Shown here: positions 47,638 through 64,000 of the stretch, piece after piece
How positions within the stretch are numbered: the stretch's first letter is position 1
How the letters are laid out: every line of letters begins with the position of its first letter
Source: an uncultured Clostridia bacterium
Lineage (GTDB): Bacteria; Bacillota; Clostridia; Oscillospirales; Acutalibacteraceae
Direction of reading: 5' to 3'
NCBI GenBank assembly: GCA_937898195.1
Contig: CALEJD010000040.1
Span: forward strand, 24,052 to 88,051
DNA: 64,000 bases
Notes under the pieces: generated by a model
Database searches by the model: none
Told to the model about the DNA's origin: nothing
What the model saw: the letters and a program-made list of their open reading frames with translations, nothing else
Program-made: the position numbers and the translations under genes

Positions 47638-48467
47638 CAGAACACCTCAATATCCATCGTGTCTCTAACTACCTTCTGTTCATTCCTAATCTTGGCGTAA
47701 CGTGTAGTAACACTGATATCGCTATGCCCCATACATAATTGAATTCTTTCAAGTGGCACATTGTGGTCAAGCATGGACGTTGCCCACAGATGTCTAAAGG
47801 AATGGTTGTGAACATTCTTATCAACTCCAGCCTTTTTAGCGGCGAGTTTAAGAGACTTATTAATCCCTTCCTTCGTCATCGGTGTGCCATTATTACTAAC
47901 AAATAAGTTGTCGATGCAATTATTGCGGATGGTCATATAATGGTTAATATACTCCATGGTCTTGTCATTAATATGTACCATCCTGCGCTTGCCACCCTTG
48001 CCAAGAATATTTACATCATTACCATTAAAGTCATCAACCTTTATGCTAATCAGTTCAGATACACGCATACCAGTAGAAGCCAAGGTTGCCATGATTGCCT
48101 TGGTTCTAACACCATTAGCCGTACACCCTACAGCATTAAGCATCATGTTTACGTCTTCCGATGTTAGCGTTGGCTCTACTTTGTTGGTAATGCGTGGGGG
48201 TTTTAGTTTCTTGGTGGGATTGGATTCCAGCACATCAATGTCAAAAAGAAAATCATAGTATCTTTTCACAGACCCTATACGCCTTGCGATGGTTGCGCTG
48301 GACAGACCTTCGTTGGTCATACAGTTCTTCCACTCAAGCAGGTCTGCGAGTGTGATTTCTTCTTCTGGTTTGTTGACATAGTTAAGCATAGATGTGATGT
48401 CTGCGCCATAACTTGCCTTCGTATTCTCATTATTGAATGTTCCAAGATAAAGATTTAATTTATTCAT
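47637..48467 (-). CDS. tyrosine recombinase (XerC/D / phage integrase family)
   Basis: R in GMRVSEL, HSFRHLW, GHSDISVTTRYAK (R-H-R-H/Y catalytic pattern). Confidence 0.8.
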   Translation of the reverse strand: MNKLNLYLGTFNNENTKASYGADITSMLNYVNKPEEEITLADLLEWKNCMTNEGLSSATIARRIGSVKRYYDFLFDIDVLESNPTKKLKPPRITNKVEPTLTSEDVNMMLNAVGCTANGVRTKAIMATLASTGMRVSELISIKVDDFNGNDVNILGKGGKRRMVHINDKTMEYINHYMTIRNNCIDNLFVSNNGTPMTKEGINKSLKLAAKKAGVDKNVHNHSFRHLWATSMLDHNVPLERIQLCMGHSDISVTTRYAKIRNEQKVVRDTMDIEVF

Positions 48468-48516: not shown

Positions 48517-48545
48517 ATTATACTACTCTTATGACGAAATGTCAA
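48517..48545 (-). promoter_or_regulatory. consensus promoter directly upstream of the recombinase gene
   Basis: TTGACA-17 nt-TATAAT; the -35 box lies inside the 3' end of the methylase gene. Confidence 0.65.
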
Positions 48546-49290
48546 GCGCTTTCTCTATTCTTTCTTTCGAAATATTAAAATATTGTTCTTCTAATTCTAT
48601 CCCTATAAAATCTCGATTTGTATTTATGCATGCTATTCCTGTTGAGCCAGACCCCATGCAATTATCAAGAACAAGATTCTTTTCTTCTGTATAAGTTTTA
48701 ATTAAATACTCAAGTAATTCTGTTGGTTTTTGTGTTGGGTGCAATCTCTGTCTTGGTGGCACTGGTGGAAATTTTATAATACTGCTTGGATGTTTATCTG
48801 TGTATGTATTATACTGTTTTTTCATATTATTATTATGCAACATTTTGCATGTATTCAATCCACCACCATTATAGACAGGCTTATCTCTTTGAATTTTTTG
48901 TGGATAATAAACCATAGATGTATCATTACTTGTATAGCATGCTTTACCATCACTAAACACACATATTAATTCATGTATTCTACCACATTGATAATTCATT
49001 ACTTGAAAATTACTTGGCTTTCCTTTATCCCAAATCCAATCGTATTTATAATCTTCTAAATTACTATATCTTAATGTAGTTGCAAATGGTTCATTAGCGA
49101 ATAAAACTATTGCATGTAATGGTTTAATGATTCTTTTATATTGTTCCCACAGAGCGTCAAATGGAATCACGCTATCCCACTTACAAGCAGTGCTCCCATA
49201 TGGTAGGTCACATAATATCATATCTATACATTGGTCTGGAATATCATTCATTAATTCGATACAGTCGCCATGATATATATTATATTTCAT
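48529..49290 (-). CDS. DNA methyltransferase, N6A/N4C beta class
   Basis: N-terminal ILCDLPYG (DPPY-type) and C-terminal DNCMGSGSTG (FxGxG-type). Confidence 0.8.
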   Translation of the reverse strand: MKYNIYHGDCIELMNDIPDQCIDMILCDLPYGSTACKWDSVIPFDALWEQYKRIIKPLHAIVLFANEPFATTLRYSNLEDYKYDWIWDKGKPSNFQVMNYQCGRIHELICVFSDGKACYTSNDTSMVYYPQKIQRDKPVYNGGGLNTCKMLHNNNMKKQYNTYTDKHPSSIIKFPPVPPRQRLHPTQKPTELLEYLIKTYTEEKNLVLDNCMGSGSTGIACINTNRDFIGIELEEQYFNISKERIEKALDISS

Positions 49291-49495
49291 TTAATACCCT
49301 CTCCACTTCTGATGTATGTTTAATCCAGTTTATCATTTCTTCTTCTGTATTGCCTGTAATCATCTTTTCATTATCCCATGCTTGACAATCTAAATATGAA
49401 TCAACAATGTCTAAAAGCATGTTATTATTGAACACATATCCCTTATATGTTAGATATTCTGAAAATATATTTTTTATCGTTCTATTGTTATCCAT
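49280..49495 (-). CDS. hypothetical protein
   Basis: Lies between the two methylase paralogs. Confidence 0.55.
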   Translation of the reverse strand: MDNNRTIKNIFSEYLTYKGYVFNNNMLLDIVDSYLDCQAWDNEKMITGNTEEEMINWIKHTSEVERVLNEI

Positions 49496-49497
49496 TA

Positions 49498-50244
49498 TTA
49501 CTTCTTTTGATTACTTATATTTTCTATCCTTTCTTTTGCGATATTAAAATACCCTTCGTTTAATTCCATCCCAATAAATTTACGATTTGTATTTATACAA
49601 GCAACACCTGTGGAGCCAGAACCCATGCAGTTATCAAGAACTACATCGTTTTCATTTGTAAATGTTTTAATTAGATTTTCCAATAATTTAATTGGCTTCT
49701 GAGTTGGATGCAAGTTGCTTGTCAAGCAATCACGTTGATATTTCCAGACTTGCGTCGGGTATCGCCAACCAGTATCTTTATATTCAAATACCCTCTTTTC
49801 TTGTTGGTCAGTTAGCGTGCCTAATTTGCCATTCTTTACTTTATTACTCCTTGGCTTACCATCATACTTTATCATTTGCGGGTTATATGTTGGTTGCTTA
49901 TTATAAAATATTGATATTGTTTCTATTGTTTTACCAACACGCTTTTTAACTTGATTGACGTTAGTTAATCTTTCTTTTTCCCAATATATATCATATTTAT
50001 ACCACGACAGATTTGAACATCGCAATAAACTGCTAAATGGTTCTTGTCCAAATAATGCAATGACACCATTAGACTTAATAATACGCACATATTCCTTCCA
50101 TAAATCATTAAATGGGATAATTGTGTCCCATTTACATGCAGTTGTACCATAAGGCAAATCACACAATATCATATCTACGCTACCACTTGGAATGTCCTGC
50201 ATTAATTCTATGCAATCGCCTTCATGTATTTCAAAATCACTCAC
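49498..50244 (-). CDS. DNA methyltransferase, N6A/N4C beta class (paralog of 48529..49290)
   Basis: Motifs ILCDLPYGTTACKWD and LDNCMGSGSTG. Confidence 0.8.
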   Translation of the reverse strand: MSDFEIHEGDCIELMQDIPSGSVDMILCDLPYGTTACKWDTIIPFNDLWKEYVRIIKSNGVIALFGQEPFSSLLRCSNLSWYKYDIYWEKERLTNVNQVKKRVGKTIETISIFYNKQPTYNPQMIKYDGKPRSNKVKNGKLGTLTDQQEKRVFEYKDTGWRYPTQVWKYQRDCLTSNLHPTQKPIKLLENLIKTFTNENDVVLDNCMGSGSTGVACINTNRKFIGMELNEGYFNIAKERIENISNQKK

Positions 50245-50265
50245 TTTAATACCTTTCCCTTATTA

Positions 50266-51077
50266 TTAAATACTTTGTAATCTGTTTTTTATAATCTCAC
50301 AATAATCCTCACTCAATTCTATACCAACCCATCTTCTGTTAGTTAGAGTAGCCATTTTTGCAGTCGTTCCACTTCCCATAAATGGGTCTAAAATTATATC
50401 GTTTTCGTTAGACCAAGAAAGTATATGGTCTTTTACTAAACTTTCTGGGAATGGTGCTGGATGCTTTTTAGAAAACTCGTCATGACCTGTAGTTTGGTTA
50501 TATTTCCATATATTGAACCTTCTTCCCATTTTTTTAGTCTCTATCTTACGATACTTTCTACCTTCGTCTGCTGTATATTTATCTCTATTCGTGTTTACGA
50601 CACTATTGCCAACAACTTTATTTTCTCTGTCATATATTAAATTATACGTTGATATTTTTCCTTTAGAAAGTACAAACATATATTCAAAATTTTGAATATA
50701 ACATTTATTACTTCCACATGCACCCACACCATTTTTTTCATATATCATAGTATCGAGTACATTCCAACCAATTTCTTTGAAATATAACGCTTGCTTGAAG
50801 GAAGTTAAAGATTCACAACCGTCTTTTGTTGCATCACCCACAATCCAAACACAAGCCCCCCCGTCTTGGTTACTCTTAACAATTCTTTAGCAACATTTTC
50901 AAAATCAAAAGAATATCCTTCTTTGTATTTTCTTAAATCGTCGTATGGTGGACTTGTAACAGTCAAATCAATACATTCATCATCTATGTCTCTTAATTTC
51001 TTAACACAATCTCCTTGAAGCAAGAATCCAGACTTGTCTTTATAATATGATGTTTTATATAATTCTCTTAAATTCAT
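50266..51077 (-). pseudogene. SPPY-type DNA methyltransferase interrupted by a frameshift at a G7 tract (C7 at 50856..50862 on the plus strand)
   Basis: N-terminal ORF (TSPPYDD...RVTKTGG) and C-terminal ORF (ACVWIVGDATKDG...PFMGSGTT) join into one ~270-aa methylase if the run has 8 G. Confidence 0.75.
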
Positions 51078-52426: not shown

Positions 52427-52455
52427 ATTATACCACAAGTTGTGTCGCATGTCAA
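52427..52455 (-). promoter_or_regulatory. perfect consensus promoter heading the replication module
   Basis: TTGACA-tgcgacacaacttgtgg-TATAAT. Confidence 0.75.
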
Positions 52456-52466
52456 CAACTTTTGCA

Positions 52467-52620
52467 GGGGGTGGTTATCCAAATTTCATTTTGAAAACAA
52501 AGTCGCATACTAAAAATCTGATTTCAATTTTCTTTTTTCAACCGGGTGGTTATCCAAATATATATGGCTGAATACGATTTTAATTTAGGATTTTGATTTC
52601 AATTTTCATTTTACCAAAAA
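52467..52620. repeat. repeat block 1: two GGGTGGTTATCCAAAT boxes plus TGATTTCAATTTTC units
   Basis: Boxes at 52467-52484 and 52544-52559; TGATTTCAATTTTC at about 52519 and about 52594; homologous to 61849..61990. Confidence 0.8.
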
Positions 52621-53112
52621 TTGGCACCACCTGCTACCATATACATATACCCTAATTCCTTTAGAAAAATTGAGATAATGATACCTATTTTCGATTTTAT
52701 ATACGATGTGGATACATTACTCATATAGTATATATCCATTCGTTATAACGTGAGTAACGTAACATATTATATTATGGTATATGCGTTATATATATAGATA
52801 TATGTATATACATAATGCATATTGATATGTTATATGTTACGCCGTTTTGCTTCATCGTAGCGTCGTGGCTCAACTCGATGCCAAGATATACATGTTCATT
52901 GACATTTGCGTTTAGATTATCTACGACACGTTCATAATTAAATTTATTTGCTATCGTTTTGGTGTAGGTTGGCTTTTGTTTATATATTATGCTTTCATTA
53001 AACACAATGTTAAAATTACAACGATACATTGAAGCAAAATCAACAACACGCTTTAATAAATCAAAATAACAAAACAAAATTTATTAACATAAAACGTGTT
53101 AATAAATCAAGA

Positions 53113-53150
53113 TAAGGTGTTTAGTTCTAACTTTCATACTAAACACCTTA
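53113..53150. terminator. perfect 13-bp stem hairpin (possible end of a leftward non-coding transcript)
   Basis: TAAGGTGTTTAGT-12 nt-ACTAAACACCTTA. Confidence 0.45.
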
Positions 53151-53455
53151 AACAAAATGGAGGTAAAAAAATGAAAAACACGCTTTCCTTCTTTTTATTT
53201 TTCAAAATCAATTTATAAAACAAAATTAATTTTGAATTTTGAAAATTGAATAATATTTTTGTGGGAGTTTTTGTTTTGCGCACTTTACCCCTTCGCTCGT
53301 CGCAAGCCTATATATTATGGGGGAAACTGATTGCGCGTACTTTACCCCTTTTCACACACCCTATACGCTTTCACACGCTAATGCGTTAATGCGCGTCGCA
53401 CTTTATCACGTTATCACGCTAATGCTTTAGCGAATGAAAGTGCATAATTATTCAC

Positions 53456-53530
53456 GAAGAACGTGCGTTTGCAAACATTTGTTCTTGCCGAAATCAGTCG
53501 CAAACATTCGTTCGCAAACGCACGTTCTTC
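53456..53530. repeat. perfect 17-bp inverted repeat with a 41-nt spacer
   Basis: GAAGAACGTGCGTTTGC ... GCAAACGCACGTTCTTC. Confidence 0.9.
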
Positions 53531-53752
53531 ACGTTCCCGGATACTTGTCAAAATTTTCCTGTAAATTTTTGACAAATTATTTTTTTGCATCTTGAGTGTT
53601 TGCGACTATAGATTCCAATTATCTGCCATTCCGTTCTTAAACATAACTTATTTGTTCAGATTGAACAAACAAGTTTTCTCCGTTTCTGATTCCAATTATC
53701 AGAACGTGAAATATTAAATTGTATTTTTTACTGTATCCTATTGACTATATAC

Positions 53753-53781
53753 ATTATACCACTTATTGATACTAAAGTCAA
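53753..53781 (-). promoter_or_regulatory. consensus promoter firing leftward into gene-free structured DNA
   Basis: TTGACT-17 nt-TATAAT with TGG. Confidence 0.6.
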
Positions 53782-53826
53782 GAGAAAATTTTATAAAACA
53801 TACAGAAAATATTTTTTTAAAAAATG

Positions 53827-53855
53827 TTGACAATAGATGCAAAGTATGGTATCAT
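53827..53855 (+). promoter_or_regulatory. rightward promoter, divergent from 53753..53781
   Basis: TTGACA-17 nt-TATCAT with TGG; followed by GGGGAAGTGTGAAGTGTAA and A17. Confidence 0.55.
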
Positions 53856-54121
53856 AAAAAGGGGAAGTGTGAAGTGTAAAAAAAAAAAAAAAAACGAATG
53901 GGAAACGATGGTATTTCTTATTCAAGATGCACGATTCTGTACAATATGCCCATCAGACGCTCTATTTTACGTTTTGGCGGGATTTATAATGTAAAGGATG
54001 TTTATATTGACTACCTATATAAAAGTCCATTAGAACGTAAATTAGGGCTTCCATATATTTCCAATTCAACAGAATCGGGACGCATGCTTTAATGCTTTAG
54101 TGTGATAAAGTGAATGTGGAT

Positions 54122-54158
54122 AAAAAAATGATGGTCTGTGTTAACCATCATTTTTTTT
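54122..54158. terminator. bidirectional rho-independent terminator
   Basis: A7-ATGATGGT-ctgtgtta-ACCATCAT-T8. Confidence 0.75.
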
Positions 54159-54163
54159 CTGTT

Positions 54164-54352
54164 TTATCTTTTGAGATTGTATTTTAACACCAAATCTTCG
54201 ATGTCCTCTTCTACCTCCATTCTGTTATCCGCACTTGACCAAAACTCATCATCTACATACGTTTCGTAGTGTTCCATTACTTTTCTAACCTCAATATGAT
54301 AAGCGAGCATTCTGTCATCGTACATTGTCATTCTATCTACTACGTTTTTCAT
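54164..54352 (-). CDS. 62-aa acidic early protein
   Basis: SD AGGAGGT; own promoter and terminator. Confidence 0.7.
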   Translation of the reverse strand: MKNVVDRMTMYDDRMLAYHIEVRKVMEHYETYVDDEFWSSADNRMEVEEDIEDLVLKYNLKR

Positions 54353-54393
54353 CTTATACCTCCTGTATGTTCTGATGTCTTTAACTTGATTAC

Positions 54394-54422
54394 ACTATAC
54401 CATACCATCGGTATGTTGTCAA
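54394..54422 (-). promoter_or_regulatory. early consensus promoter
   Basis: TTGACA-17 nt-TATAGT with TGG. Confidence 0.7.
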
Positions 54423-54737
54423 GTATTTTTTTTATAAATTTTTCTGCAAAATATTTTGCACCATAATTGCCATGTTTACATAGAACATCGTACACAAAAT
54501 ACTTACTACCATTTCTTTCCAATAAATCGGTAAATCGAAAAATAATAGCTTATAGGCATATGCTTCTGTTTTTCCTATCGTTTGAAATAGATTGTATAAG
54601 TACAAAAATTTCATCGAGAACAGGGGAAATCGTCGATTTAAGCGATTTTTTAAAAGAAAAGGTATTTTAGTACGCCAAACCCCCGAAACCCCCAAAACTT
54701 TAGCACGTTAAAACTTTAATGTGATAAAGTTTTGGCA

Positions 54738-54768
54738 ATAAAAAAATCGGATTAATACATCCGATTTT
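54738..54768 (-). terminator. rho-independent terminator (leftward)
   Basis: AAATCGGAT-taataca-ATCCGATTT followed by T7 on the minus strand. Confidence 0.65.
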
Positions 54769-54953
54769 CCATAATAAATATAATTCTATCCGCTAATTCA
54801 TTCATCTGTTTTTCTGTAATATGCTTCCATTTATAGCACCAATCAATTCTATTGCATATCCAATCAATGCTTTTGGTTTTGTAGTTGTATACACAATTTT
54901 ATTACTTTATCACTTTAACGCACTAAAGTTAAGGGGTAAAAATAAAAGAACAT

Positions 54954-55148
54954 TTAATGTTCTTTTATCTCTTCAAACCCAATGAAATTGATTATTGAAT
55001 ATTTCACTACATCATTATTATATCTAATAAAATTGAATGTATCATTTACCTGTTTCAGCGTTTCACCGTCAACGTGTTTAATAATTGGTGAACCAATTAA
55101 CTTACCATTGTTGTCTTTTCTGAAATAACTATAAGTGATTCTAAACAT
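54954..55148 (-). CDS. 64-aa early protein
   Basis: SD GGAGGT. Confidence 0.65.
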   Translation of the reverse strand: MFRITYSYFRKDNNGKLIGSPIIKHVDGETLKQVNDTFNFIRYNNDVVKYSIINFIGFEEIKEH

Positions 55149-55250
55149 AATATACCTCCATAAAGCTCTAATTTTAGTTTTAAACGTGTCTTATATGCTC
55201 ATTGATAGTTTATATTATCTTTATATAAAACACGCTTAAATCGCCATTTT

Positions 55251-55811
55251 TTACCTTGATTCCATATAACTATATCTTGGCGTACTTGTCAAAATCTGAC
55301 AATTACTTTTTTCTGCGTCAAATCTCAAATCGCTTCCGCATTTTCCACATCTATAGTTATGGTAATTTTTGGTAAATTTACTTGCACGTTCTCTGATAAT
55401 AACTTGCCCACATCCTTCACATACAAATACATAATTATGCTTCTTTTCTCTTGTTGGTTTTTCAATTCCAAAATCTGAATATGAATTTGTGCGTGTGATT
55501 GTATACTTTGTGTTGCGTGTTACATAATCCGCCAATCTTTTCCATTCATTTTTATGCGTCATGCAATCCTTACATGTGTGCAATACCTCATGGATAATTG
55601 TACTCATAATCGCAACATCATTAGCATTGTCATCAAAGATAAGATAGTTAAAATTAAGTGAATATGTATTTGTTACGTTATTTCTTCTACATTGTCCGAA
55701 TCTGTTTTTAGCACGATAGTTCAATTTGACTTCAACGATGTTACCATACTCAATATTTAAGTCATCAAGAATTTCAAGTGCACTATGATACATTTCCATA
55801 TAGTTTTTCAT
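55251..55811 (-). CDS. SprT-like zinc metalloprotease with a C-terminal Zn ribbon
   Basis: RFGQC..., HEVLH (HExxH), CEGCG...CGKCG; ATG 55811 after GGAGGT lies downstream of the promoter, so the longer track ORF is unlikely. Confidence 0.65.
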   Translation of the reverse strand: MKNYMEMYHSALEILDDLNIEYGNIVEVKLNYRAKNRFGQCRRNNVTNTYSLNFNYLIFDDNANDVAIMSTIIHEVLHTCKDCMTHKNEWKRLADYVTRNTKYTITRTNSYSDFGIEKPTREKKHNYVFVCEGCGQVIIRERASKFTKNYHNYRCGKCGSDLRFDAEKSNCQILTSTPRYSYMESR

Positions 55812-55852
55812 TTCATACCTCCGATAATGTATGTGCTTTATCTTACGATAAC

Positions 55853-55881
55853 AATATATCATACATCGTTATATTTGTCAA
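55853..55881 (-). promoter_or_regulatory. early consensus promoter
   Basis: TTGACA-17 nt-TATATT. Confidence 0.65.
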
Positions 55882-55924
55882 GTTCTTTTTTAAGTACAAT
55901 TCTTTAGTGCTTTAGTGTGATAAA

Positions 55925-56116
55925 TTACCTTACATCCTCCATTTCCATATGTGGATATTTCTCTTTAAGCATTAACATAATTTCATGGTATGTTGCAAAA
56001 TAATCTTTTTCCTCAAGATAAGAATAACTAAACAGAAATTCATCCATGCTTAACGTCATAAAATCATGCATTTTGTTCATGTCATCCGCAAATGTCCAAT
56101 TACTAATATCCTTCAT
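55925..56116 (-). CDS. 63-aa acidic early protein
   Basis: SD AGGAGGT. Confidence 0.7.
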   Translation of the reverse strand: MKDISNWTFADDMNKMHDFMTLSMDEFLFSYSYLEEKDYFATYHEIMLMLKEKYPHMEMEDVR

Positions 56117-56156
56117 GTTAACCTCCTATAATGTTACACTATCAATTTACAATATC

Positions 56157-56185
56157 ATATTATCATACATTGGTTTATTTGTCAA
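56157..56185 (-). promoter_or_regulatory. early consensus promoter
   Basis: TTGACA-17 nt-TAATAT. Confidence 0.65.
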
Positions 56186-56230
56186 GTAAAATGTGCAAAA
56201 TATTTTTATAAATATTTTTCTAAAAACTAC

Positions 56231-56259
56231 TTGACAAACGTTGAAAAATATGTTAATCT
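56231..56259 (+). promoter_or_regulatory. rightward promoter, divergent from 56157..56185
   Basis: TTGACA-17 nt-TAATCT; followed by GGGGAAGTCTAAGTCTAA and an A run. Confidence 0.5.
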
Positions 56260-56295
56260 AATAGGGGAAGTCTAAGTCTAATAAAAAAAAGATAT

Positions 56296-56324
56296 AAAAA
56301 AAACGGTCTGAATTTTCAGACCGT
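56296..56324 (-). terminator. rho-independent terminator (leftward)
   Basis: ACGGTCTG-aattttc-CAGACCGT followed by T8 on the minus strand. Confidence 0.7.
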
Positions 56325-56332
56325 TCCTATAT

Positions 56333-56527
56333 TTACAACAAATCAGTTTCCATTTCCCTAATATAAAATTCATCCATATCATAAAGTTTTTTAATAAGTT
56401 CTAATTTTTCCCTTGCTCTTTTTTCGCTTGCGTATGCCATAATCATACTACTGGTTATAACATTGTCTTTAGATTTTGTTTGTAATGATATAACACCAAA
56501 TTTATCACATATTGCATATACTACCAT
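56333..56527 (-). CDS. 64-aa early protein
   Basis: SD GGAGGT. Confidence 0.65.
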   Translation of the reverse strand: MVVYAICDKFGVISLQTKSKDNVITSSMIMAYASEKRAREKLELIKKLYDMDEFYIREMETDLL

Positions 56528-56549
56528 AATTTACCTCCAAATATTTATG

Positions 56550-56993
56550 TCAATTTTTTTCTTCAACCATTTCTTTAATGTCATCAATTGTAATGGTTTG
56601 ATTTTTATAATTTTCAAAGAGTGCCTTGCAATCATCTACTGTAGAACAAATATTGTTGCAAATACAAGTGTCGCAATCGTTACAAAAATCTTCAAAGTCA
56701 TTTTCAAGTTCTAAACTTTCAATTGATTCATTCAAAGTTTCTTCCATTTCATCTTCGGGCAAATTTCCATTTTCTGTCAATCCAATATTCTCATAAATAT
56801 AGTCACGTTCAAACCATATAAAATCGTTTACTTCCGTATCAGTCGGAACATTATCACAAAACACCATCTCAAGAAAATCCATAAATTCATTTTCTTTGTT
56901 TGCGTTCTGAATGTCTGCAATAGTATCTATTGCTCCACTCCATACCATATCAGCAAGTTCATAAAACCCATTGATTTCTTTTCTAACTTCCAT
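56550..56993 (-). CDS. 147-aa strongly acidic early protein
   Basis: SD GGAGGT; D/E-rich with a CNDCDTCICNNIC cluster. Confidence 0.7.
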   Translation of the reverse strand: MEVRKEINGFYELADMVWSGAIDTIADIQNANKENEFMDFLEMVFCDNVPTDTEVNDFIWFERDYIYENIGLTENGNLPEDEMEETLNESIESLELENDFEDFCNDCDTCICNNICSTVDDCKALFENYKNQTITIDDIKEMVEEKN

Positions 56994-57031
56994 GTTGTTA
57001 CCTCCAATTATATAACCTTTAACATAGTTAT

Positions 57032-57060
57032 ACTATATCATGCTTTATTGTCATTGTCAA
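57032..57060 (-). promoter_or_regulatory. early consensus promoter
   Basis: TTGACA-17 nt-TATAGT. Confidence 0.7.
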
Positions 57061-57067
57061 GTATTTT

Positions 57068-57295
57068 TTAATAATAATTTTTTGGTGCGTTATCAATTTC
57101 TCTGCGAGTAAATCCCATTTCCAAAAGTTTCTTAATCATGGTTTCTTTTTTAACATACCACCTTAATTCAATATCATGGTATGTAGAATTATATACTTGA
57201 TTTGACGGTCTTGTGTATGAATTCATTTTATATAATTCTAATTCATAACTATTATTCATTGATTTTAATTTATATCCATAATATGTTCTTCTCAT
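57068..57295 (-). CDS. 75-aa early protein
   Basis: ATG 57295 lies 6 nt after GAGGTG. Confidence 0.6.
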   Translation of the reverse strand: MRRTYYGYKLKSMNNSYELELYKMNSYTRPSNQVYNSTYHDIELRWYVKKETMIKKLLEMGFTRREIDNAPKNYY

Positions 57296-57308
57296 TTTAT
57301 GCACCTCA

Positions 57309-57578
57309 TTATTCCATCATTTCATTAATGTAAATCGTTTCTCTGTCATCATGTTTAAGCCATGATACCCATTCACATTCTACTTTTATATTACGTCTGT
57401 TAAGCACTTCTTTCCACATGTCGTTAATGAACATATAAAAATCATTTAATGCTTCTGCTTTTGCGTTATCTTTATTATTAGAGATTACGATTTCACTATA
57501 CAATTTTTCGTTTCTAATTCCACTAAATATTGTATTTGTTCTTCCGTAAATTGTTACATAATATTTCTTCATGCTCAT
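57309..57578 (-). CDS. 89-aa early protein
   Basis: SD GGAGGT. Confidence 0.65.
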   Translation of the reverse strand: MSMKKYYVTIYGRTNTIFSGIRNEKLYSEIVISNNKDNAKAEALNDFYMFINDMWKEVLNRRNIKVECEWVSWLKHDDRETIYINEMME

Positions 57579-57592
57579 TGTCTATACCTCCA

Positions 57593-57841
57593 TCAATCCC
57601 ATCCTAACATTTCATATATTTCATCCATGTTAAATGGTTTACTATTTACATCGTGCTTCGGTGTATCTAATATCTTGTCAATTCTCGCTTGTTCTGTTTT
57701 GTGTTGCCATAACAATGGTTCGTTACCTTTTACCATATTTTCTGTGACTGTATATCTTTTTCCCCTATATTCATATTCAAGATATACGGTTTCCCTGTCG
57801 TATCCTGTGCCATACCATTTATCAATAAATTTTGCCTTCAT
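57593..57841 (-). CDS. 82-aa early protein
   Basis: SD GGGAGGT. Confidence 0.65.
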   Translation of the reverse strand: MKAKFIDKWYGTGYDRETVYLEYEYRGKRYTVTENMVKGNEPLLWQHKTEQARIDKILDTPKHDVNSKPFNMDEIYEMLGWD

Positions 57842-57869
57842 TCTTTCAACCTCCCTTATTTACAATACC

Positions 57870-57898
57870 ACTATACCATATTTCAATCCCATTGTCAA
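57870..57898 (-). promoter_or_regulatory. early consensus promoter
   Basis: TTGACA-17 nt-TATAGT with TGG. Confidence 0.7.
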
Positions 57899-58290
57899 CA
57901 ACTTTTTTTCAACAAAATAAAATAAAAAAAACTACCATTTTTTCAATGTTTTTTACCACTATTTTATAAAATTACGTTCGGCAAATCGCAAATTAGAGCC
58001 TCGCAAAAATCAAAAGAATGTTGGAATTTCAACGATTATAGCCATTCTTTAGCACTTTAGTGTAATTTTGCCATATAGTTATACCTTGAATTTATGTATT
58101 TTTATGCAAATTTCATACATAAATCGTTATAAATGTTGAAATTGCAAGGGTTTCGACGTTTTTACCTATCGTACAACAAGCCTAAAATAAGCCTAAAATC
58201 GTCGATTTAAGCGTTTTTCCCAAAATATGGTATGAATACTCATGTATATTATACATAAGGGTTGGCACGATACTTGCATAGCCAAATTTG

Positions 58291-58546
58291 CTTTAATGCT
58301 TTAGAATACAAAAGTAAAATTTTACTTTTGTACTTTATAATTTGAATACTTTAATTTGCTAAAGTGTAACATTATAATCCACTTTTATGTTGTAAAGCAT
58401 TAAAGCATTATCGCTTTAATATGGTAAAGTTATAAAATATTAACGTCTTAATACATTAAAATATCATTGCTTTAATATGGTAAAGTCTTGTGTATTGAAT
58501 ATTGTATACACATTTTTAGCACATTAATACTTTAATGCGTTAAAGT
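58291..58546. repeat. gene-free cluster of ACTTTA-N6-TAAAGT palindromes, a 22-bp perfect palindrome and a TGTATACA palindrome
   Basis: Sites at 58348, 58413, 58469 and 58529; CAAAAGTAAAATTTTACTTTTG at 58309-58330; TGTATACA at 58503-58510. Confidence 0.85.
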
Positions 58547-58556
58547 TTTTGAACAT

Positions 58557-58594
58557 GAAAAAAGGTTACCAATATTTTACACGGTAACCTTTTC
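58557..58594 (-). terminator. rho-independent terminator (leftward)
   Basis: AAAGGTTACC-12 nt-GGTAACCTTT followed by a T run on the minus strand. Confidence 0.7.
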
Positions 58595-58629
58595 CAATTT
58601 ATTTATAGGAGGTTTTAGAGAATTTCTGA

Positions 58630-59193
58630 TTAATAATCATATTGTACTATTCTACCATCCCAAAGTTCATAATAGTAACCATCTTCAATAATCGCTTCGC
58701 CAAGTCCTTCATAATCAATATAATTTGTTAACCAAGATTCAATATTACAACATTCATCAACATAATTTTCTGCAACGTCATACGCATCATTCCATACATA
58801 CGATATAATACTCATATCAAAATAATCATTGTTGTAATTGTTAAGCACTTCTTCAACATCTTCTTCGTTAAGTGCGTATTCATCATGCATCTTTTCAATT
58901 TCAGATTCACGCACATATGATTCAAATTCTTCATGTTCACCATTTGCAATCATATCAGCAACATCGCTAAACGTATCATCGCCATCAGTATTTTTCATAC
59001 GATTAAACACATCTTTCGTAACCCATGTTTCAACATCATCAAAATCTTCATCAATACGCACACTACAACGTGCATTTGATACAATAGGTTTACCACTATA
59101 ATCTAAATGAATTATGCCATCACTATTAAGTTCAATATATCTGCATCCATCGCATTCATCTTTAATTCTATAAAGGATAATGTACTTACTCAT
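58630..59193 (-). CDS. ardA: ArdA-like anti-restriction protein (acidic DNA-mimic family)
   Basis: C-terminus YDVAENYVDE...LTNYIDYEGLGEAIIEDGYYYELWDGRIVQY parallels Tn916 Orf18 ArdA YDVARYYIEE...LQNYIDYQAYGRDLDLSGTF...GIFEI (recalled from memory); very acidic. Confidence 0.55.
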   Translation of the reverse strand: MSKYIILYRIKDECDGCRYIELNSDGIIHLDYSGKPIVSNARCSVRIDEDFDDVETWVTKDVFNRMKNTDGDDTFSDVADMIANGEHEEFESYVRESEIEKMHDEYALNEEDVEEVLNNYNNDYFDMSIISYVWNDAYDVAENYVDECCNIESWLTNYIDYEGLGEAIIEDGYYYELWDGRIVQYDY

Positions 59194-59207
59194 ATTTATA
59201 CCTCCAA

Positions 59208-59750
59208 TTACGCACGTTCTTCAACTTCGTTAAGCAAATCTTCAACTTCAGTTTCGCAAAACTCGCCAATACTTGTATCGTTATCCCAATCCCAAACATT
59301 ATAGCACTCTGCCATAATATCTATATCACAACAATATTTACCATCGGCAATGGTTTTATATTGCATACGAGATTCAAGTTCAAACCATTCTGTTTCATCG
59401 TCAAATCTTACTAAAAATCTATCCGTATAATTTGCTCTTACATCACCATATCTATGTACCATAATCGCCATATATGTATATCCATTTATTCCCAATTCTG
59501 CTACATCAATATCGTGGTCTATATTAGCATTCCAATTATAAGTATTCCATCTATGGGCTGCATGTTCTACAATCCAATCAATTGACTTTCCTGTAGTTTC
59601 AATTTCATAATCCTTTAATTCATAAAGCAATTCAAGAACATTGCCACAAATTACATCATCTTTAATTTCACCGTTCGGCTCATATATCCAAGCCTTACAT
59701 TCTTTATTGACTTCCTTAATATCCTTAATTACTGCGTCCAATCTTGTCAT
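59208..59750 (-). CDS. 180-aa acidic early protein
   Basis: ATG 59750 lies 8 nt after GGAGGT (the track starts at TTG 59765). Confidence 0.65.
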   Translation of the reverse strand: MTRLDAVIKDIKEVNKECKAWIYEPNGEIKDDVICGNVLELLYELKDYEIETTGKSIDWIVEHAAHRWNTYNWNANIDHDIDVAELGINGYTYMAIMVHRYGDVRANYTDRFLVRFDDETEWFELESRMQYKTIADGKYCCDIDIMAECYNVWDWDNDTSIGEFCETEVEDLLNEVEERA

Positions 59751-59793
59751 ATTCATAACCTCCAATTATGTTATAACTTTATCTTACAATAAT

Positions 59794-59822
59794 ACTATAA
59801 CATATCTTTAATCATTTATCAA
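59794..59822 (-). promoter_or_regulatory. early promoter
   Basis: TTGATA-17 nt-TATAGT. Confidence 0.6.
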
Positions 59823-59961
59823 GTGTTTTTTTTAACAAATAATCAATATCCGACAATTTACTATTCATCGCCAATTGCAAATCAATACCATTGATTCCAA
59901 TTTTTTCCAATTCCCTTTTTATCTCGTTTTGTTTTGTTATTGGTAGTTCTGCAATATACAT
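59812..59961 (-). CDS. 49-aa early protein
   Basis: Weak SD AGGAAA; starts right after the upstream stop. Confidence 0.4.
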   Translation of the reverse strand: MYIAELPITKQNEIKRELEKIGINGIDLQLAMNSKLSDIDYLLKKTLDK

Positions 59962-59962
59962 T

Positions 59963-60109
59963 TTATTTATTTCCTAACTTTATTCTTATAATTTTATGCT
60001 CCAAAATCTTTAGTTCATCTTTTTGATGGTTATATTCCATTTCAATTCTTTTGCCTTGCTTTAATTTCTGTGTAATTACCTCTAATGCTTCCTTATTAAT
60101 ATATTCCAT
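59963..60109 (-). CDS. 48-aa early protein
   Basis: SD GGGAGGT 5 nt upstream. Confidence 0.55.
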   Translation of the reverse strand: MEYINKEALEVITQKLKQGKRIEMEYNHQKDELKILEHKIIRIKLGNK

Positions 60110-60126
60110 TTATTACCTCCCAAATT

Positions 60127-60549
60127 TTACCATTCTTCATCTTCTTCATCTTCCAAAAGTGCCCAATGAATACTTCCATCACAATCCGCATCCATATAGT
60201 CCTCAATAGATTCATCCCATAAATTGTTCATGTCAAATGTTCTATAAAGGAAATTTGCAAGCTCCAATGGGTTTTTATAATAGTGTCTTTCAAGTTCCTT
60301 TGTCGGGCGCATACCACCATCAGCATAAACATAAATTGTAATGAGATTATCATTATCCACCATTAGTTTAATATATCCCATTTCATTTTCATGGAACACC
60401 ATAAACTCACAAACACGCTCGTTACAATTCCAGTCAAAATCTGTACCATCATTACCATTCATATAGTAAATTTTTCCATCAAGTTCATTTCCGATAATTG
60501 GATATTCTTCCCTAACTTCATTAATAATGTTCAAAATCTGTTTAAGCAT
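60127..60549 (-). CDS. 140-aa acidic early protein (ends EDEEDEEW)
   Basis: SD AGGAGGT. Confidence 0.7.
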   Translation of the reverse strand: MLKQILNIINEVREEYPIIGNELDGKIYYMNGNDGTDFDWNCNERVCEFMVFHENEMGYIKLMVDNDNLITIYVYADGGMRPTKELERHYYKNPLELANFLYRTFDMNNLWDESIEDYMDADCDGSIHWALLEDEEDEEW

Positions 60550-60587
60550 ATGTTACCTCCTATTACATAACTTCTTTTAACACATAT

Positions 60588-60616
60588 ACTATATCATACA
60601 TTGGTTATATTGTCAA
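60588..60616 (-). promoter_or_regulatory. early consensus promoter
   Basis: TTGACA-17 nt-TATAGT. Confidence 0.7.
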
Positions 60617-60625
60617 GTATTTTTT

Positions 60626-60922
60626 TTAGATTTTGTTAAAATCTTCATCATACCAATTTCCATCTTTATCCAATGTATATTCCGATACCTTCCAAAATTC
60701 CCTTACGCAATATTCAAGTTCTTCAATACTCTTCAAATCATCAAAATGTTCATAAGCACAAATCGTATATACATATGTTGTTAGGCAATTCAATTTTGCT
60801 TCTGCATTAAGTTCGTCATATGTGAGAAATGTTTCTTCTCCCATATCATTCAATTCATCTTCAATTAATGTAATTACATTACTTGACAAACACATGTGCT
60901 CTATTACATCGCCTAAATTCAT
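60626..60922 (-). CDS. 98-aa acidic early protein
   Basis: ATG 60922 lies 6 nt after GGAGGA. Confidence 0.65.
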   Translation of the reverse strand: MNLGDVIEHMCLSSNVITLIEDELNDMGEETFLTYDELNAEAKLNCLTTYVYTICAYEHFDDLKSIEELEYCVREFWKVSEYTLDKDGNWYDEDFNKI

Positions 60923-60924
60923 CC

Positions 60925-61122
60925 TTATTCCTCCATCCAATCATACCATGAGCGCACTTCATCTTCATGCAATCCCATATCAACATAAATTCCTATAAGT
61001 TCTTCACGTTCCTTAATATTTCTATAATTGTAATAATTATCCAAATGTTCACCAATCCAATTGCACATATTAGTTAACAAGTTTTCAATTTCTGCATTTG
61101 TATAGTCATTATGCCAAGTCAT
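60925..61122 (-). CDS. 65-aa acidic early protein
   Basis: SD AGGAGGT. Confidence 0.65.
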   Translation of the reverse strand: MTWHNDYTNAEIENLLTNMCNWIGEHLDNYYNYRNIKEREELIGIYVDMGLHEDEVRSWYDWMEE

Positions 61123-61125
61123 AAT

Positions 61126-61341
61126 TTACCTCCTATCAATCGTACCAAGCCAACTATTGAATTCATCCCAATCAACTTCACACACATCATAGTCCTCAAA
61201 GAATTCAAGAACATTCTCAAACATATTCTTACAAGCGATAAATTCATCATCAGAAAGTTTTGTACCTTCATAAAGTGCTTCAATACAATCGTTTACATCC
61301 ATGTTTGTATTGTGAAATCTGCAATAATTCATATTTGCCAT
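61126..61341 (-). CDS. 71-aa acidic early protein
   Basis: SD AAGGAGGT. Confidence 0.65.
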   Translation of the reverse strand: MANMNYCRFHNTNMDVNDCIEALYEGTKLSDDEFIACKNMFENVLEFFEDYDVCEVDWDEFNSWLGTIDRR

Positions 61342-61352
61342 ATCGTACCTCC

Positions 61353-61445
61353 TTAATAAATACCATCAATATAATGATTTCCAAGCCCTGTAATAATAGT
61401 CACCAATGCGAAAGCGATAATCGCCTTTATTGTTTCTCTATCCAT
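61353..61445 (-). CDS. 30-aa hydrophobic micro-protein
   Basis: SD AGGAGGT 6 nt upstream; first ORF after the promoter at 61492..61520. Confidence 0.4.
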   Translation of the reverse strand: MDRETIKAIIAFALVTIITGLGNHYIDGIY

Positions 61446-61491
61446 ATTCAACCTCCTACCATATCAATTATTATTTTTCAATTTCAACGTA

Positions 61492-61520
61492 ATTATATCA
61501 TATCTGTTTTTATTTGTCAA
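61492..61520 (-). promoter_or_regulatory. early consensus promoter
   Basis: TTGACA-17 nt-TATAAT. Confidence 0.7.
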
Positions 61521-61827
61521 GAAAAATCTCAATATTTTTCATTCCAAAATATTCCAATGTTAGTACAAATGCGACAAGATTTTTCACGTTATGATTATTG
61601 ATTTTTCTTTTTTCATTCGCATAATCTTCAAATGCAAATCGAAAAGCATAAAGGTCATAAGCCATACCACGCATCACAATATCCTCTAACCTATCATCCC
61701 AATGCTCATTTTCCATTGTGTGATACTTAATAAAATCCTCTGCATAATCCTTTTCCTCAATATAATGGTCATAAAATCTCCCCATAAATTCAAATCCATC
61801 CATTGTAATTTCTGTTTTGATTTTCAT
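61510..61827 (-). CDS. 105-aa early protein
   Basis: SD GGAGGT. Confidence 0.65.
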   Translation of the reverse strand: MKIKTEITMDGFEFMGRFYDHYIEEKDYAEDFIKYHTMENEHWDDRLEDIVMRGMAYDLYAFRFAFEDYANEKRKINNHNVKNLVAFVLTLEYFGMKNIEIFLDK

Positions 61828-61848
61828 TTCATACCTCCGATTACATAA

Positions 61849-61990
61849 GGGGTGGTTATCCGATTATCAAAATCAATAAGGGGTGGTTATCCAATTATTG
61901 ATTTCAATTTTCGTTTTTTGATTCTGAAATTGATTTCATTTTTCATTTTTTGATTTTGAAATTGATTTCATTTTTCAATTTTTCATTTTG
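61849..61990. repeat. repeat block 2: two ATAAGGGGTGGTTATCC boxes plus three TGATTTCAWTTTTC units
   Basis: Boxes at 61849-61864 and 61880-61895; same orientation as block 1. Confidence 0.8.
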
Positions 61991-62056
61991 CTATCGTGCG
62001 CACCTTGTACCAATATTTTACACGTTGAATTAAAATCAATTTTCATTTGCAAACGT

Positions 62057-62085
62057 ATAATATCATATCTCGTTTTATTTGTCAA
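62057..62085 (-). promoter_or_regulatory. early consensus promoter with a ~230-nt leader containing repeat block 2
   Basis: TTGACA-17 nt-TATTAT. Confidence 0.65.
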
Positions 62086-62931
62086 TACCTTTTTTTATTT
62101 TGTTTTATTTTTTTTATCATGCGCATGTTATATATAATGTATGCTTTTGATTATAAGTATATTGTTGTTGTTATTTTTACATACAATATTTTTCATATCA
62201 CCTTATAACGCTTTAATTTGCGTTTTAAGCGATTTTTTATATTGAATGATAAATTACCTTACATTGATACAAAATGCTCTTAAAACTTAAAATAAGCACA
62301 TTAAACACTCGTTTTTAGGGATAATCATATAACATCATGTATTATTTTTCTACCATATTATTATATGTGATTTTGATATAAAAAAAATAATCAATTTGTT
62401 ATCAAAATATTACTAATTTGTTTATGAAAAAATAAACAAACATGCTTTAAGAATAAAGAAAAAGATTTTAATGATTTAATACTTTAATTAATTAAAGTAA
62501 AAAAAATGAAACAATACGCTTTAAGAATAAGAAAATAAAATCAATTTTACTTTTTTTCAATTTAACACTTTAATCAATTAAAGTGTTATCAAAAAAAAAC
62601 ATTATCAAAATCAAAATTCAAAATTAAAAGAATTTTTAAGAATAAAAAAATCAAAAAAATTTTCATTTTTTTTTCAAAAATCTCTGTGGCATATATATAT
62701 GGGGAAATATAAAAAACGCACTTTACCCTCCGCAAGCGAGTCCCCCTCTGCTTTTTCACATTAAAGTAATGAATCGAATCAAATTTTAACGCTTTAACGC
62801 TTTATCGCTTTAATTGAATAAAGTGCATATTCATTCATTCCAAATTTTTCCATTTTTGGCAATTTTTCCATTTCTATTTTCTTCCATAAACAAGCGTTTG
62901 CGCTCGCCTGTTCTGTCAGATTTTGGAAGTG

Positions 62932-62965
62932 AACAATTGTTTTTATCCATATAAAAACAATTGTT
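62932..62965. repeat. perfect 15-bp-stem hairpin / cruciform
   Basis: AACAATTGTTTTTAT-ccat-ATAAAAACAATTGTT. Confidence 0.9.
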
Positions 62966-62968
62966 TGT

Positions 62969-62977
62969 TGTGGATAA
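62969..62977. promoter_or_regulatory. perfect DnaA-box 9-mer
   Basis: TGTGGATAA (reverse complement TTATCCACA), 3 nt from the 15-bp hairpin. Confidence 0.4.
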
Positions 62978-64000
62978 CCCACGTTATCATTCTACCACAA
63001 ATTAGTATTAAATACAATGCAAAAATTTTTGCATTTCATACGCTAATACTTTAATGTATGAAAGTTATTTTTATAGTATCGTGCAATTGTATATTGTATA
63101 CACAATTTTAATACTTTAATGCAATAAAGTGCCTCTGTCAGAAACCTTTACAATTTAATACTTTAATTTAATAAAGTATGTATATTGTATACATCTTTTA
63201 ATACTTTATAACTTTAATTGATTAAAGTATTAAAGTATACAATTTTGCATACTGTATACAATATTTTATTGCTTTAATTGAATAAAGTGTTAATGTGTTA
63301 AAATATATATTTGCATATTGTATACAATAGTTTAATGATTTATCATTTTAATATTTTAACTTGCTAAAGTATTTTATACGTTATAACTTTATTGAATTAA
63401 AGTATTAAATTGTTAATATGGTAATATTTTAATGTGTTAAAGTTTTGTATACAAAACACACAAAAATACATTGATTTTTTTATGGTCTGAAATTTATTTT
63501 TTGTATCGGGAAATCGAAAAATAAAGCCTCAAAAAATCTTAAAAAATCGCTTAATTGCAAGGGTTTGAGGCGATTTTTTAACGCTTTAGCGTATTTTTGT
63601 CATGTAGTTATACCTTGAAATTATAAAAATTTTTTTGTTTTTGCACACAAAAACGCTCGAAAGCCTTGTACCGCAAGGGTTTGCCGACTTTTGATTTTGA
63701 AAAATTAGCGCAAAATGACGCCTTATTTTTTGATTTCCCGGTTTTTTGTGTGTTGTGGTCTGATTTTATTGTGTGAAAACACAATAATGATTGGTATAAC
63801 TTTTGCATAGGATAATTTTTGCTTTAGCATATTAAAACTTTAATGCGTTAAAGTAAGAATCACGTACACTTTAGCACGTTAAAATTTTAATGTATTAAAA
63901 TTTCTTGACCAAAAAAATAGTAAAAAATGGTAAAATTTTGGCATAAATTTTGCTACATTATATATAAAAAAGGCACTAAAAAATAATTTCAAAACATGCA

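Follow-up and report, generated by a model that had tools for sequence, protein, structure and literature searches.

A probable early accessory island of small, often acidic proteins and conserved non-coding blocks in an uncultured phage of a gut Firmicute

The DNA analysed here, referred to as the window, comprises 64,000 nt of contig CALEJD010000040.1 (assembly GCA_937898195.1, uncultured Clostridia bacterium; positions 24,052-88,051, forward strand), and the interval studied within it, 52456-62085 in window positions, which are used throughout, carries small minus-strand genes organised in nine separately promoted units. This island is probably an early accessory region in the ~100-kb genome of an uncultured phage infecting a low-G+C gut Firmicute, read by the host RNA polymerase and directed against host defences or at other host functions.

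In the mechanism that we favour, host RNA polymerase with its primary sigma factor would read the island as soon as the DNA enters, because each of the nine units has its own near-consensus extended -10 promoter, and small, mostly acidic proteins would be made in a rapid burst before replication. These proteins would neutralise host defences or redirect host functions, the methyltransferases encoded downstream would then protect the progeny DNA, and conserved non-coding blocks, acting as protein-binding DNA, may time or gate expression of the region.

Promoters, genes and genomic setting

A first-pass annotation of this DNA had placed nine promoters in the island, whose -10 ends are the lower coordinates of P1 to P9 in Table 1, and had described them as TTGACA (TTGATA in one unit) separated by 17 nt from TATAxT. 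All nine were recovered at these positions, and our scan agrees with the proposed architecture, with 10-12 of 12 hexamer matches in each promoter, a 17-nt spacer and a TG extension on every one. When the pattern TTGACA-N14-TGNTATAAT was searched with at most two mismatches, the window contained 21 matches, against 2.1 +/- 1.6 in shuffled sequences, and none of 100 shuffles reached 21. Twenty of these near-consensus sites, all at 21-62 kb, belong to the minus strand, and 12 of the 21 fall inside 52.4-62.1 kb; the window scan found none within 1-21 kb, the plus-strand block at 1-16 kb included. Three further near-consensus promoters in the interval, at 52455-52427 (-), 53781-53753 (-) and 53827-53855 (+), had been missed by the first-pass annotation.

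The island promoters form a subclass, characterised by an A-tract directly 5' of the -35 element, by TTGACAA and by a TRTG motif at -16, with TATAGT as the -10 element in five of the nine. Their leaders measure 28-46 nt in eight cases, the first promoter having the long leader listed in Table 1.

Downstream of these promoters, 19 open reading frames (ORFs) are defensible (g1 to g19, 54164-61827, 30-187 codons) rather than the 22 counted previously; the three extra ORFs needed for the higher count, which have Shine-Dalgarno-like sites, lie out of frame inside g1, g6 and g14, and were rejected. The observation that all but one ORF have a Shine-Dalgarno (SD) sequence of the GGAGGT class stands, since an exact GGAGGT lies 4-7 nt before the start codon of 16 genes, GGAGG and GAGGT occur once each, and a single gene, g8 (59961-59812), has a weak SD. 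The ATG of g8 overlaps the stop codon of g7 (TAATG), which suggests that its translation is coupled to that of the preceding gene. Four clear terminators had also been reported and were found again, as hairpins with a U-run after g10, g15, g18 and g19, folding at -14 to -18 kcal/mol. Besides, the motif AACCTCC, the complement of the GGAGGT ribosome-binding site, occurs at 58585-58612, just 3' of the g10 stop codon, and is invariant in all relatives.

The statement that most products are strongly acidic proved slightly overstated, as the isoelectric point (pI) is below 5 in 10 of the 19. In nine products the net charge is nevertheless -11 or lower per 100 amino acids (aa), which makes them more acidic than every one of the 38 other window proteins compared, the lowest of which reaches -8.7. 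The island is also distinct in base composition (29-31% G+C, against 33-44% elsewhere in the window) and is loosely packed with genes, a point absent from the earlier description: the coding fraction is 71% of 54164-61827 and 57% of the whole interval. A search for paralogy among the island proteins returned no convincing pairs.

The surrounding genes identify the window as phage DNA, encoding a DnaE-type polymerase, RecD-like and DnaB-like helicases, RecJ and a ribonucleotide reductase with an intein. By polymerase, the closest cultured relatives are large Clostridioides and Bacillus phages at ~40% identity, and this kinship indicates that the phage is neither SPO1-like nor T5-like; no close DNA relatives were present among the 50,697 phage records that served as reference set for both DNA comparison and tblastn. 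Immediately beyond the island, on its downstream side, three N6/N4 DNA methyltransferase genes in a row (48529-50841) suggest self-methylation against restriction, which fits an anti-restriction theme, and a tyrosine recombinase encoded 4 kb downstream (47637-48467) is possibly involved in dimer resolution or integration.

Conserved non-coding blocks and exchangeable genes

The same layout recurs in over 250 related phage sequences from metagenomes, whose contigs measure ~94-106 kb. Five complete neighbourhoods were compared (the window, L001, L004, L006 and L008), together with the more distant L017, from a goat-colon assembly, whose g10 homologue is 64% identical. All six follow a common plan, in which divergent small genes precede a ~2.5-kb non-coding block and the island itself, with a further non-coding block after g10; more small genes, the SprT-like one among them, come next, and a ~1.8-kb non-coding block leads on to the conserved replication/methylase module. 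Consensus promoters are equally a feature of the relatives, with 10-15 in each of eight related loci, L017 among them.

Within this plan, SD sites and gene families are conserved across loci, and gene content is mosaic. In the five complete neighbourhoods, g5, g7, g10 and g17 occur in all, seven families occur in four, and g11, g13, g15 and g19 only in the window; g8, excluded from this clustering for its weak SD, has a homologue in L017 only. Three further phages retrieved via a 32-mer from the core of block B (L018, L019 and L021) lack g10, and in two of them an unrelated acidic orphan of 130 aa occupies the g10 slot, just upstream of the conserved block (L019, 1126-1548; L021, 606-998), making it a candidate alternative anti-defence protein. 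One IMG/VR contig was recovered through a non-coding 32-mer. Promoters, terminators and non-coding modules thus form a constant scaffold, and the genes are exchangeable cargo. Mosaic gene content and allelic replacement are typical of counter-defence loci.

Four non-coding blocks (A to D, Table 1) interrupt or flank the genes; overlooked in the first-pass annotation, these conserved blocks amount to about a third of the region. Their dominant repeat is the 18-bp palindrome ACTTTAA-N4-TTAAAGT (ACTTTAAT-NN-ATTAAAGT), with 22 matches against 0.8 expected, all of them non-coding and within 54.7-63.9 kb. Palindrome copy number differs between relatives by insertion or deletion, and at 63.09-63.45 kb about five units of ~65 bp each pair TGTATACA with an 18-bp palindrome. 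The motif GGGTAAAGYGCG is present in three copies, and GGATAACCACCC occurs in pairs, one in the leader of the first island gene and one just upstream of the promoter at 52455; the proximal copy in the g1 leader lies 10-11 nt 5' of the SD in the window and in the three relatives with the same first gene (L001, L004 and L017).

Two sets of sites recall host regulators. Perfect DnaA boxes stand at 62969 and 54115, in conserved positions. The second motif, GAAC-N4-GTTT/C, is the LexA operator in clostridia (PMC4234289), and GAAC-N4-GTTT occurs four times within 70 bp at 53459-53527 and once more at 62931-62942. In the form GAAC-N4-GTT[CT] it recurs in the matching blocks of L001, L004, L006, L008 and L017, in some instances as a perfect CGAAC-N4-GTTCG, and these LexA-type sites suggest SOS sensing. 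The outer two of the four clustered sites form a 17-nt inverted repeat, and the cluster lies ~230-290 nt downstream of a near-consensus promoter that has no ORF. The motif GGATAACCACCC is one mismatch away from the DnaA-box consensus, but its conserved CCACCC extension and its palindromic GGATATCC variant would point to another binding protein.

Other sequence features of the blocks deserve mention. The regions 63.5-63.7, 58.0-58.25 and 54.45-54.67 kb share the sub-motifs CGCTTAAATCGACGATTT, TTTTCGATTT[AC]CCGAT, AAACCCTTGCAATT and TTCAAGGTATAACTAYATG, and a strong promoter (62085, 57898 and 54422, respectively) is found 100-400 bp downstream of each. Promoters 53827-53855 (+) and 53781-53753 (-) are placed back to back and divergent, with no credible ORF downstream of either, and the plus-strand member would yield a transcript of ~300 nt (53862-54157) ending at the bidirectional terminator 54122-54157. 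The transcripts of this pair (53753-53855) are possible candidates for non-coding RNAs, with zero matches in Rfam. Further DnaA boxes (TTATCCACA) are found in relatives beyond the sequence corresponding to the window, at 57-112 in L004, 941-986 in L006, 1901-1944 in L008 and 3023-3087 in L001; these clusters hold two to four perfect boxes (two in L001 and L008) within ~20-65 bp, past the divergent small genes, and lie a few kb further upstream of the window's 64-kb end. They could represent a replication origin or a DnaA-titrating site. An ORF of 29 codons in block B was rejected as a gene, having no SD and losing its stop codon in one relative.

Conservation of the non-coding blocks equals or exceeds that of the genes. 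Identity between the window and L001 is 85% over 57827-58386 and 92% over 54715-54883, compared with 79-91% over coding stretches, and in the ~330-bp core of block B, L017 and L004 share ~97% identity, as read from the alignment, although the island proteins of L017 are only 49-86% identical to those of the window. An RNA function for the blocks was considered and rejected, as there was no Rfam match even at E <= 1 and no tRNA, and RNAalifold on six block B sequences returned a covariation term of only -0.43 kcal/mol. The lack of RNA-family matches and of covariation, combined with conservation of the primary sequence, favours sites bound by proteins at the DNA level, and the blocks are most likely arrays of predicted protein-binding sites. 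Candidate binders are host LexA and DnaA, each at its own boxes, and small basic island proteins such as g7.

Such a degree of conservation raises the question of whether the blocks, rather than the genes, are what the region is for. They might be a replication origin, a partition site or a lysis-lysogeny control region, with the small genes as tolerated cargo without common function, a reading that we regard as improbable. It would account for the iterated ~65-bp units, the DnaA boxes, the A+T-rich DNA (24% G+C), the LexA-type operators, the clusters of 3-4 perfect DnaA boxes that relatives carry a few kb further upstream and the high conservation of non-coding DNA, but it leaves unexplained both the near-consensus promoter and strong SD on every unit and the fixed order of the core genes (g5, g7, g10 or its replacement, and g17). 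Moreover, it is compatible with an early, host-directed island and does not exclude one.

The blocks also invite comparison with T5-like phages. In the pre-early segment of these, three untranslated regions of repeats combine palindromes with paired DnaA boxes; they surpass most pre-early ORFs in conservation, and a role in halting DNA entry has been proposed for them (10.1101/866236). If the island were a Gram-positive counterpart of T5 first-step transfer, it would enter first, and its repeat blocks would pause or stage entry in cis. This appears highly improbable. The four blocks with their 22 palindromes, the conserved positions of the perfect DnaA boxes and the near-identity of a block core between phages with diverged island proteins would fit such a scheme; however, over 20 kb separate the island from both contig ends in the three long assemblies (L001, L006 and L008), an observation that is uninformative if these assemblies are permuted, tblastn with the island products yielded no matches in T5-like phage records, the blocks are not confined to the edges of the island but also occur within it, and DnaA boxes with iterated repeats equally fit a replication origin or a plasmid-type control region. 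A broader proposal by analogy, that the whole scaffold (promoters, palindromes, ~65-bp units, DnaA boxes and GGATAACCACCC) would be a cis device staging entry or gating first transcription, with anti-defence genes occupying its slots, we hold to be quite doubtful.

Candidate anti-defence and host-directed products

ArdA is a dimeric DNA mimic that blocks Type I restriction-modification enzymes. The first-pass annotation had noticed one ArdA-like product, and comparison of family profiles bears this out for g10, at the sequence level a diverged homologue of ArdA whose N-terminal region is different. Visual inspection already shows a likeness between the g10 C-terminus and Tn916 ArdA. The best sequence match of the g10 family profile in the PDB is ArdA 2W82 (Tn916 Orf18; E 0.017). 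In hhalign, the g10 family reached a probability of 64.5% against a single ArdA sequence and of 93.4% (E 2.5e-7, 111 columns) against an alignment of eight sequences, namely Tn916 ArdA and seven phage ArdA homologues. Residues 74-185 of g10 align to ArdA 29-166, and the counterparts of ArdA domains 2-3 can be made out. The equally acidic g9, g14 and g6, tried as ArdA-like candidates and rejected, all scored below 1%, which argues that the g10 match is not an artefact of composition; the 130-aa protein that replaces g10 in L019 and L021 also scored below 1% and was likewise rejected.

Residues Y137 and I138 are essential in Tn916 ArdA and lie inside its anti-restriction/dimer motif (PMC2731889). 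This motif is retained, ArdA LQNYIDY aligning with LTNYIDY in g10, where Y137-I138 and D139 correspond to Y158-I159-D160, and these three residues are invariant in 43 g10 homologues. Several conserved acidic positions of ArdA are also kept, and the positions of the essential VF motif in the last beta-strand (I160 and F161) correspond to I182-V183 in g10 and to V-V in most homologues, that is, to a hydrophobic pair without Phe. The net charge of g10 (Table 1) is consistent with DNA mimicry, and an anti-restriction activity of the ArdA type is predicted for it.

The family of g10, the most acidic product, comprises 262 relatives among 90%-identity cluster representatives, all metagenomic and on contigs of up to 94-106 kb. 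Among the 120 relatives listed, identity to g10 was 77-100%, and a repeat search with the g10 profile added only six clusters (268 in total), with no distant relatives listed, so that the alignment was not deepened. An exact look-up of g10 found no record, and a peptide-pattern search of IMG/VR found no close relatives of g10 or of the neighbouring 220-aa protein.

The SprT-like gene also named in the first-pass annotation is g17, in which a SprT-like domain (PF10263, residues 26-107) and a SprT zinc ribbon (PF17283, residues 126-163) occur in the correct order, with HEVLH at 74-78 supplying the HExxH motif and CxxC pairs at 131-134 and 155-158. Both domains score below the curated Pfam cut-offs (23.4 against 25.6 bits and 24.7 against 28.1 bits, respectively), and the score with the NCBIfam SprT models, 23.9 bits, is far under their cut-offs. 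Scans of Pfam, PHROGs and NCBIfam recognise only g17, while g3, g9 and g14 match PHROG families of unknown function; none of the Pfam results for island products points to a nucleotidase or to any other recognised function beyond g17, and 18 accessory proteins from related loci have no Pfam match.

When the 19 products were searched by tblastn against the phage reference set, only g17 and g11 matched, neither of them in an SPO1-like phage. For g11, cultured phages offer a single relative, a Bifidobacterium phage BP1 protein annotated as hypothetical (51% identity), which hints at gene exchange across distant host groups. The N-terminal ~85 residues of g14 are far more widespread, with 504 clusters at E <= 0.001 among 1.84 billion representatives, and often occur as a stand-alone phage protein of ~80 aa. 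Structure prediction, which the first-pass annotation had proposed for the island products, gave a confident, all-helical model of g14 (predicted local distance difference test, pLDDT, 90) but no usable model of g10. The g14 model has no structural match in the PDB and matches only uncharacterised phage proteins in a viral library, and the g14 profile has no sequence match in Pfam or the PDB.

Table 1. Features of the island and its flanks, in window coordinates
Feature	Position	Strand	Description
block A contents			about five ~65-bp units, DnaA box 62969, LexA-type site 62931, GGGTAAAGTGCG 62717
non-coding block A	62086..64000	.	24% G+C; continues past the window end
promoter P1	62057..62085	-	TTGACA-17-TATTAT with TG extension; 229-nt leader, then g1
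two GGATAACCACCC sites	61850..61892	-	in the g1 leader
g1	61510..61827	-	105 aa, pI 4.9, GGAGGT SD; orphan; in 3/5 related loci
promoter P2	61492..61520	-	perfect 12/12 with TG; heads g2-g5
g2	61353..61445	-	hydrophobic peptide, 30 aa; in 4/5 loci
g3	61126..61341	-	71 aa, pI 4.05; matches phrog_8760 (unknown function)
g4	60925..61122	-	65 aa, pI 4.3; orphan
g5	60626..60922	-	98 aa, pI 4.05; core family, 5/5 loci
promoter P3	60588..60616	-	heads g6-g8
g6	60127..60549	-	140 aa, net charge -23, C-terminus EDEEDEEW; orphan, not ArdA-like
g7	59963..60109	-	48 aa, basic (pI 9.4); core family; 98% identity in relatives
g8	59812..59961	-	49 aa, weak SD, TAATG overlap with g7; 60%-identical homologue in L017
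promoter P4	59794..59822	-	-35 is TTGATA; heads g9-g10
g9	59208..59750	-	180 aa, net charge -25; matches phrog_15079 (unknown function); not ArdA-like
g10	58630..59193	-	187 aa, net charge -35; diverged ArdA homologue (by sequence)
intrinsic terminator after g10	58561..58592	-	kept in all relatives
non-coding block B	57899..58560	.	18-bp palindromes, copy number variable; ~330-bp core
promoter P5	57870..57898	-	heads g11-g13; -35/-10 hexamers invariant in 5 loci
g11	57593..57841	-	82 aa; relative in Bifidobacterium phage BP1
g12	57309..57578	-	89 aa; orphan
g13	57068..57295	-	75 aa, basic (pI 9.6); orphan
promoter P6	57032..57060	-	heads g14-g15
g14	56550..56993	-	147 aa, net charge -32; N-terminal ~85-aa domain widespread
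g15	56333..56527	-	64 aa; orphan
intrinsic terminator after g15	56299..56328	-	
promoter P7	56157..56185	-	-10 is TAATAT; heads g16
g16	55925..56116	-	63 aa, pI 4.5; orphan
promoter P8	55853..55881	-	heads g17-g18
g17	55251..55811	-	186 aa; SprT-like Zn-metalloprotease with Zn ribbon; core family
g18	54954..55148	-	64 aa; orphan; 86-94% identity in relatives
intrinsic terminator downstream of g18	54740..54770	-	
non-coding block C	54423..54953	.	palindromes and shared module CGCTTAAATCGACGATTT
promoter P9	54394..54422	-	heads g19
g19	54164..54352	-	62 aa, pI 4.6; orphan
bidirectional terminator after g19	54122..54157	.	adjoined by perfect DnaA box, 54115-54123
non-coding block D	52456..54121	.	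back-to-back promoters, four GAAC-N4-GTTT sites, two GGGTAAAGYGCG, two GGATAACCACCC (52469, 52544)
promoter P12	52427..52455	-	perfect match; heads next module: 38-aa ORF, 220-aa protein, then three DNA methylase genes

Elsewhere in the window, the large subunit of the ribonucleotide reductase (17996-20992) contains an intein with an HNH endonuclease domain, and two plus-strand late-region proteins (10376-11899 and 14097-15605) carry a DUF5048 domain and BspA-type leucine-rich repeats and may be receptor-binding or adhesion proteins.

Weighing the interpretation and comparison with known systems

Several observations weigh against an early, anti-defence or host-directed island. Its early timing is deduced from promoter type alone, and the same promoter class also drives the replication genes at 21-52 kb; moreover, the 18-bp palindromes do not overlap promoters, which counts against the regulatory route. 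In line with the first-pass annotation, which had recognised none but the ArdA-like and SprT-like genes, 17 of the 19 products have no assignable function in Pfam, PHROGs or NCBIfam, and tblastn of the 19 products against the phage reference set detected neither homology to SPO1 gp37-gp60 nor any match in T5-like records, which carry A1, A2 and dmp. Regarding g10, the curated ArdA models miss it (no match to Pfam PF07275 at E <= 0.1 or in NCBIfam at E <= 1), its residues 1-73 do not align to the N-terminal signature LGxYNxGxLxGxW, which is invariant across the eight-sequence ArdA alignment, and its AlphaFold2 model has a mean pLDDT of 42, poor because the alignment is shallow. Finally, the tyrosine recombinase, the LexA-type operators and the DnaA boxes suggest that the phage may be temperate or plasmid-like.

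If it is, the strongly promoted cassettes could be expressed during carriage instead of takeover, and the units might be moron-type accessory cassettes of a temperate phage or phage-plasmid, constitutively expressed from the resident element and serving exclusion, anti-defence against rivals or maintenance. We consider this unlikely, though much of the evidence would accommodate it: the units are autonomous, each with its own promoter and four with their own terminator, their G+C lies below that of the core genome, their genes are present or absent in a mosaic among relatives, a tyrosine recombinase is encoded nearby, and clostridial-type LexA operators, clustered in block D, recur in all related loci. 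The nearest cultured relatives by DnaE include Clostridioides phage pCD1602_4, whose plasmid-style name is a weak hint in the same direction. On the other hand, every unit has the orientation of the replication module, which follows directly downstream of them, their promoters belong to the class that drives the replication genes, ArdA-type proteins are needed at DNA entry and not in carriage, and the window revealed neither a repressor nor an integrase-associated att site nor partition genes. An early island acting against the host thus remains the interpretation that we favour.

The island is of interest because this clade, for which gut metagenomes yield more than 250 clusters of a single island protein, is both common there and uncharacterised throughout. 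Each genome provides a compact, well-delimited list of ~19 candidate counter-defence or host-modulating proteins, with many more across relatives, and the leads for anti-defence include an ArdA variant with a new N-terminal region, a widespread ~85-aa helical domain without structural relative and a slot in which unrelated acidic proteins are swapped. The blocks, in turn, might show how the first wave of transcription is timed in a large Firmicute phage, or how such a phage senses the SOS and DnaA state of its host.

Individual products have counterparts in known families. Compared with ArdA (Tn916 Orf18, 2W82, PF07275), g10 is similar in size, even more acidic and has the NYIDY motif in common, but it differs in the first ~73 residues, evades the curated models and belongs to a family confined to this phage clade. 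Like SprT-like zinc metalloproteases (PF10263 with PF17283), g17 has an HExxH motif followed by a C-terminal four-Cys zinc ribbon; it differs in being phage-encoded inside a putative early island and in scoring just below threshold.

At the level of the whole island, the units resemble morons in having their own promoter, a terminator in four cases and atypical base composition. As in T5 first-step transfer, small genes are interleaved with untranslated blocks of repeats, palindromes and DnaA boxes that are better conserved than most ORFs, whereas the dominant repeat here is the 18-bp palindrome instead of paired DnaA boxes, and the host is Gram-positive.

The leading, first-expressed regions of conjugative plasmids contain anti-defence islands with ArdA-type proteins, DNA methyltransferases and many small proteins (PMC11541004), and the phage island likewise combines ArdA-type and methyltransferase genes with small proteins of unknown function. 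Plasmid leading regions, however, use single-strand promoters, whereas ordinary sigma-A-type promoters on double-stranded phage DNA are found here, and no ssb or psiB-type genes were found.

In SPO1, the host-takeover module consists of many small genes in short operons with near-consensus host-type promoters and strong SD sequences (PMC6873191). A resemblance to the takeover modules of SPO1-like and T5-like phages, as proposed in the first-pass annotation, holds for this architecture of small genes, strong promoters and strong SD sequences, but not for lineage or homology. Both the SPO1 module and the island span ~10-12 kb, with some 20-26 mostly small genes in several short operons (PMC6873191), and both have promoters and ribosome-binding sites typical of highly expressed early genes read by the host RNA polymerase. 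The island differs in the lineage of its replication genes and by its large conserved non-coding blocks, its LexA-type sites and the nearby tyrosine recombinase. Its likeness to the SPO1 module and to plasmid leading regions is one of architecture, not of descent.

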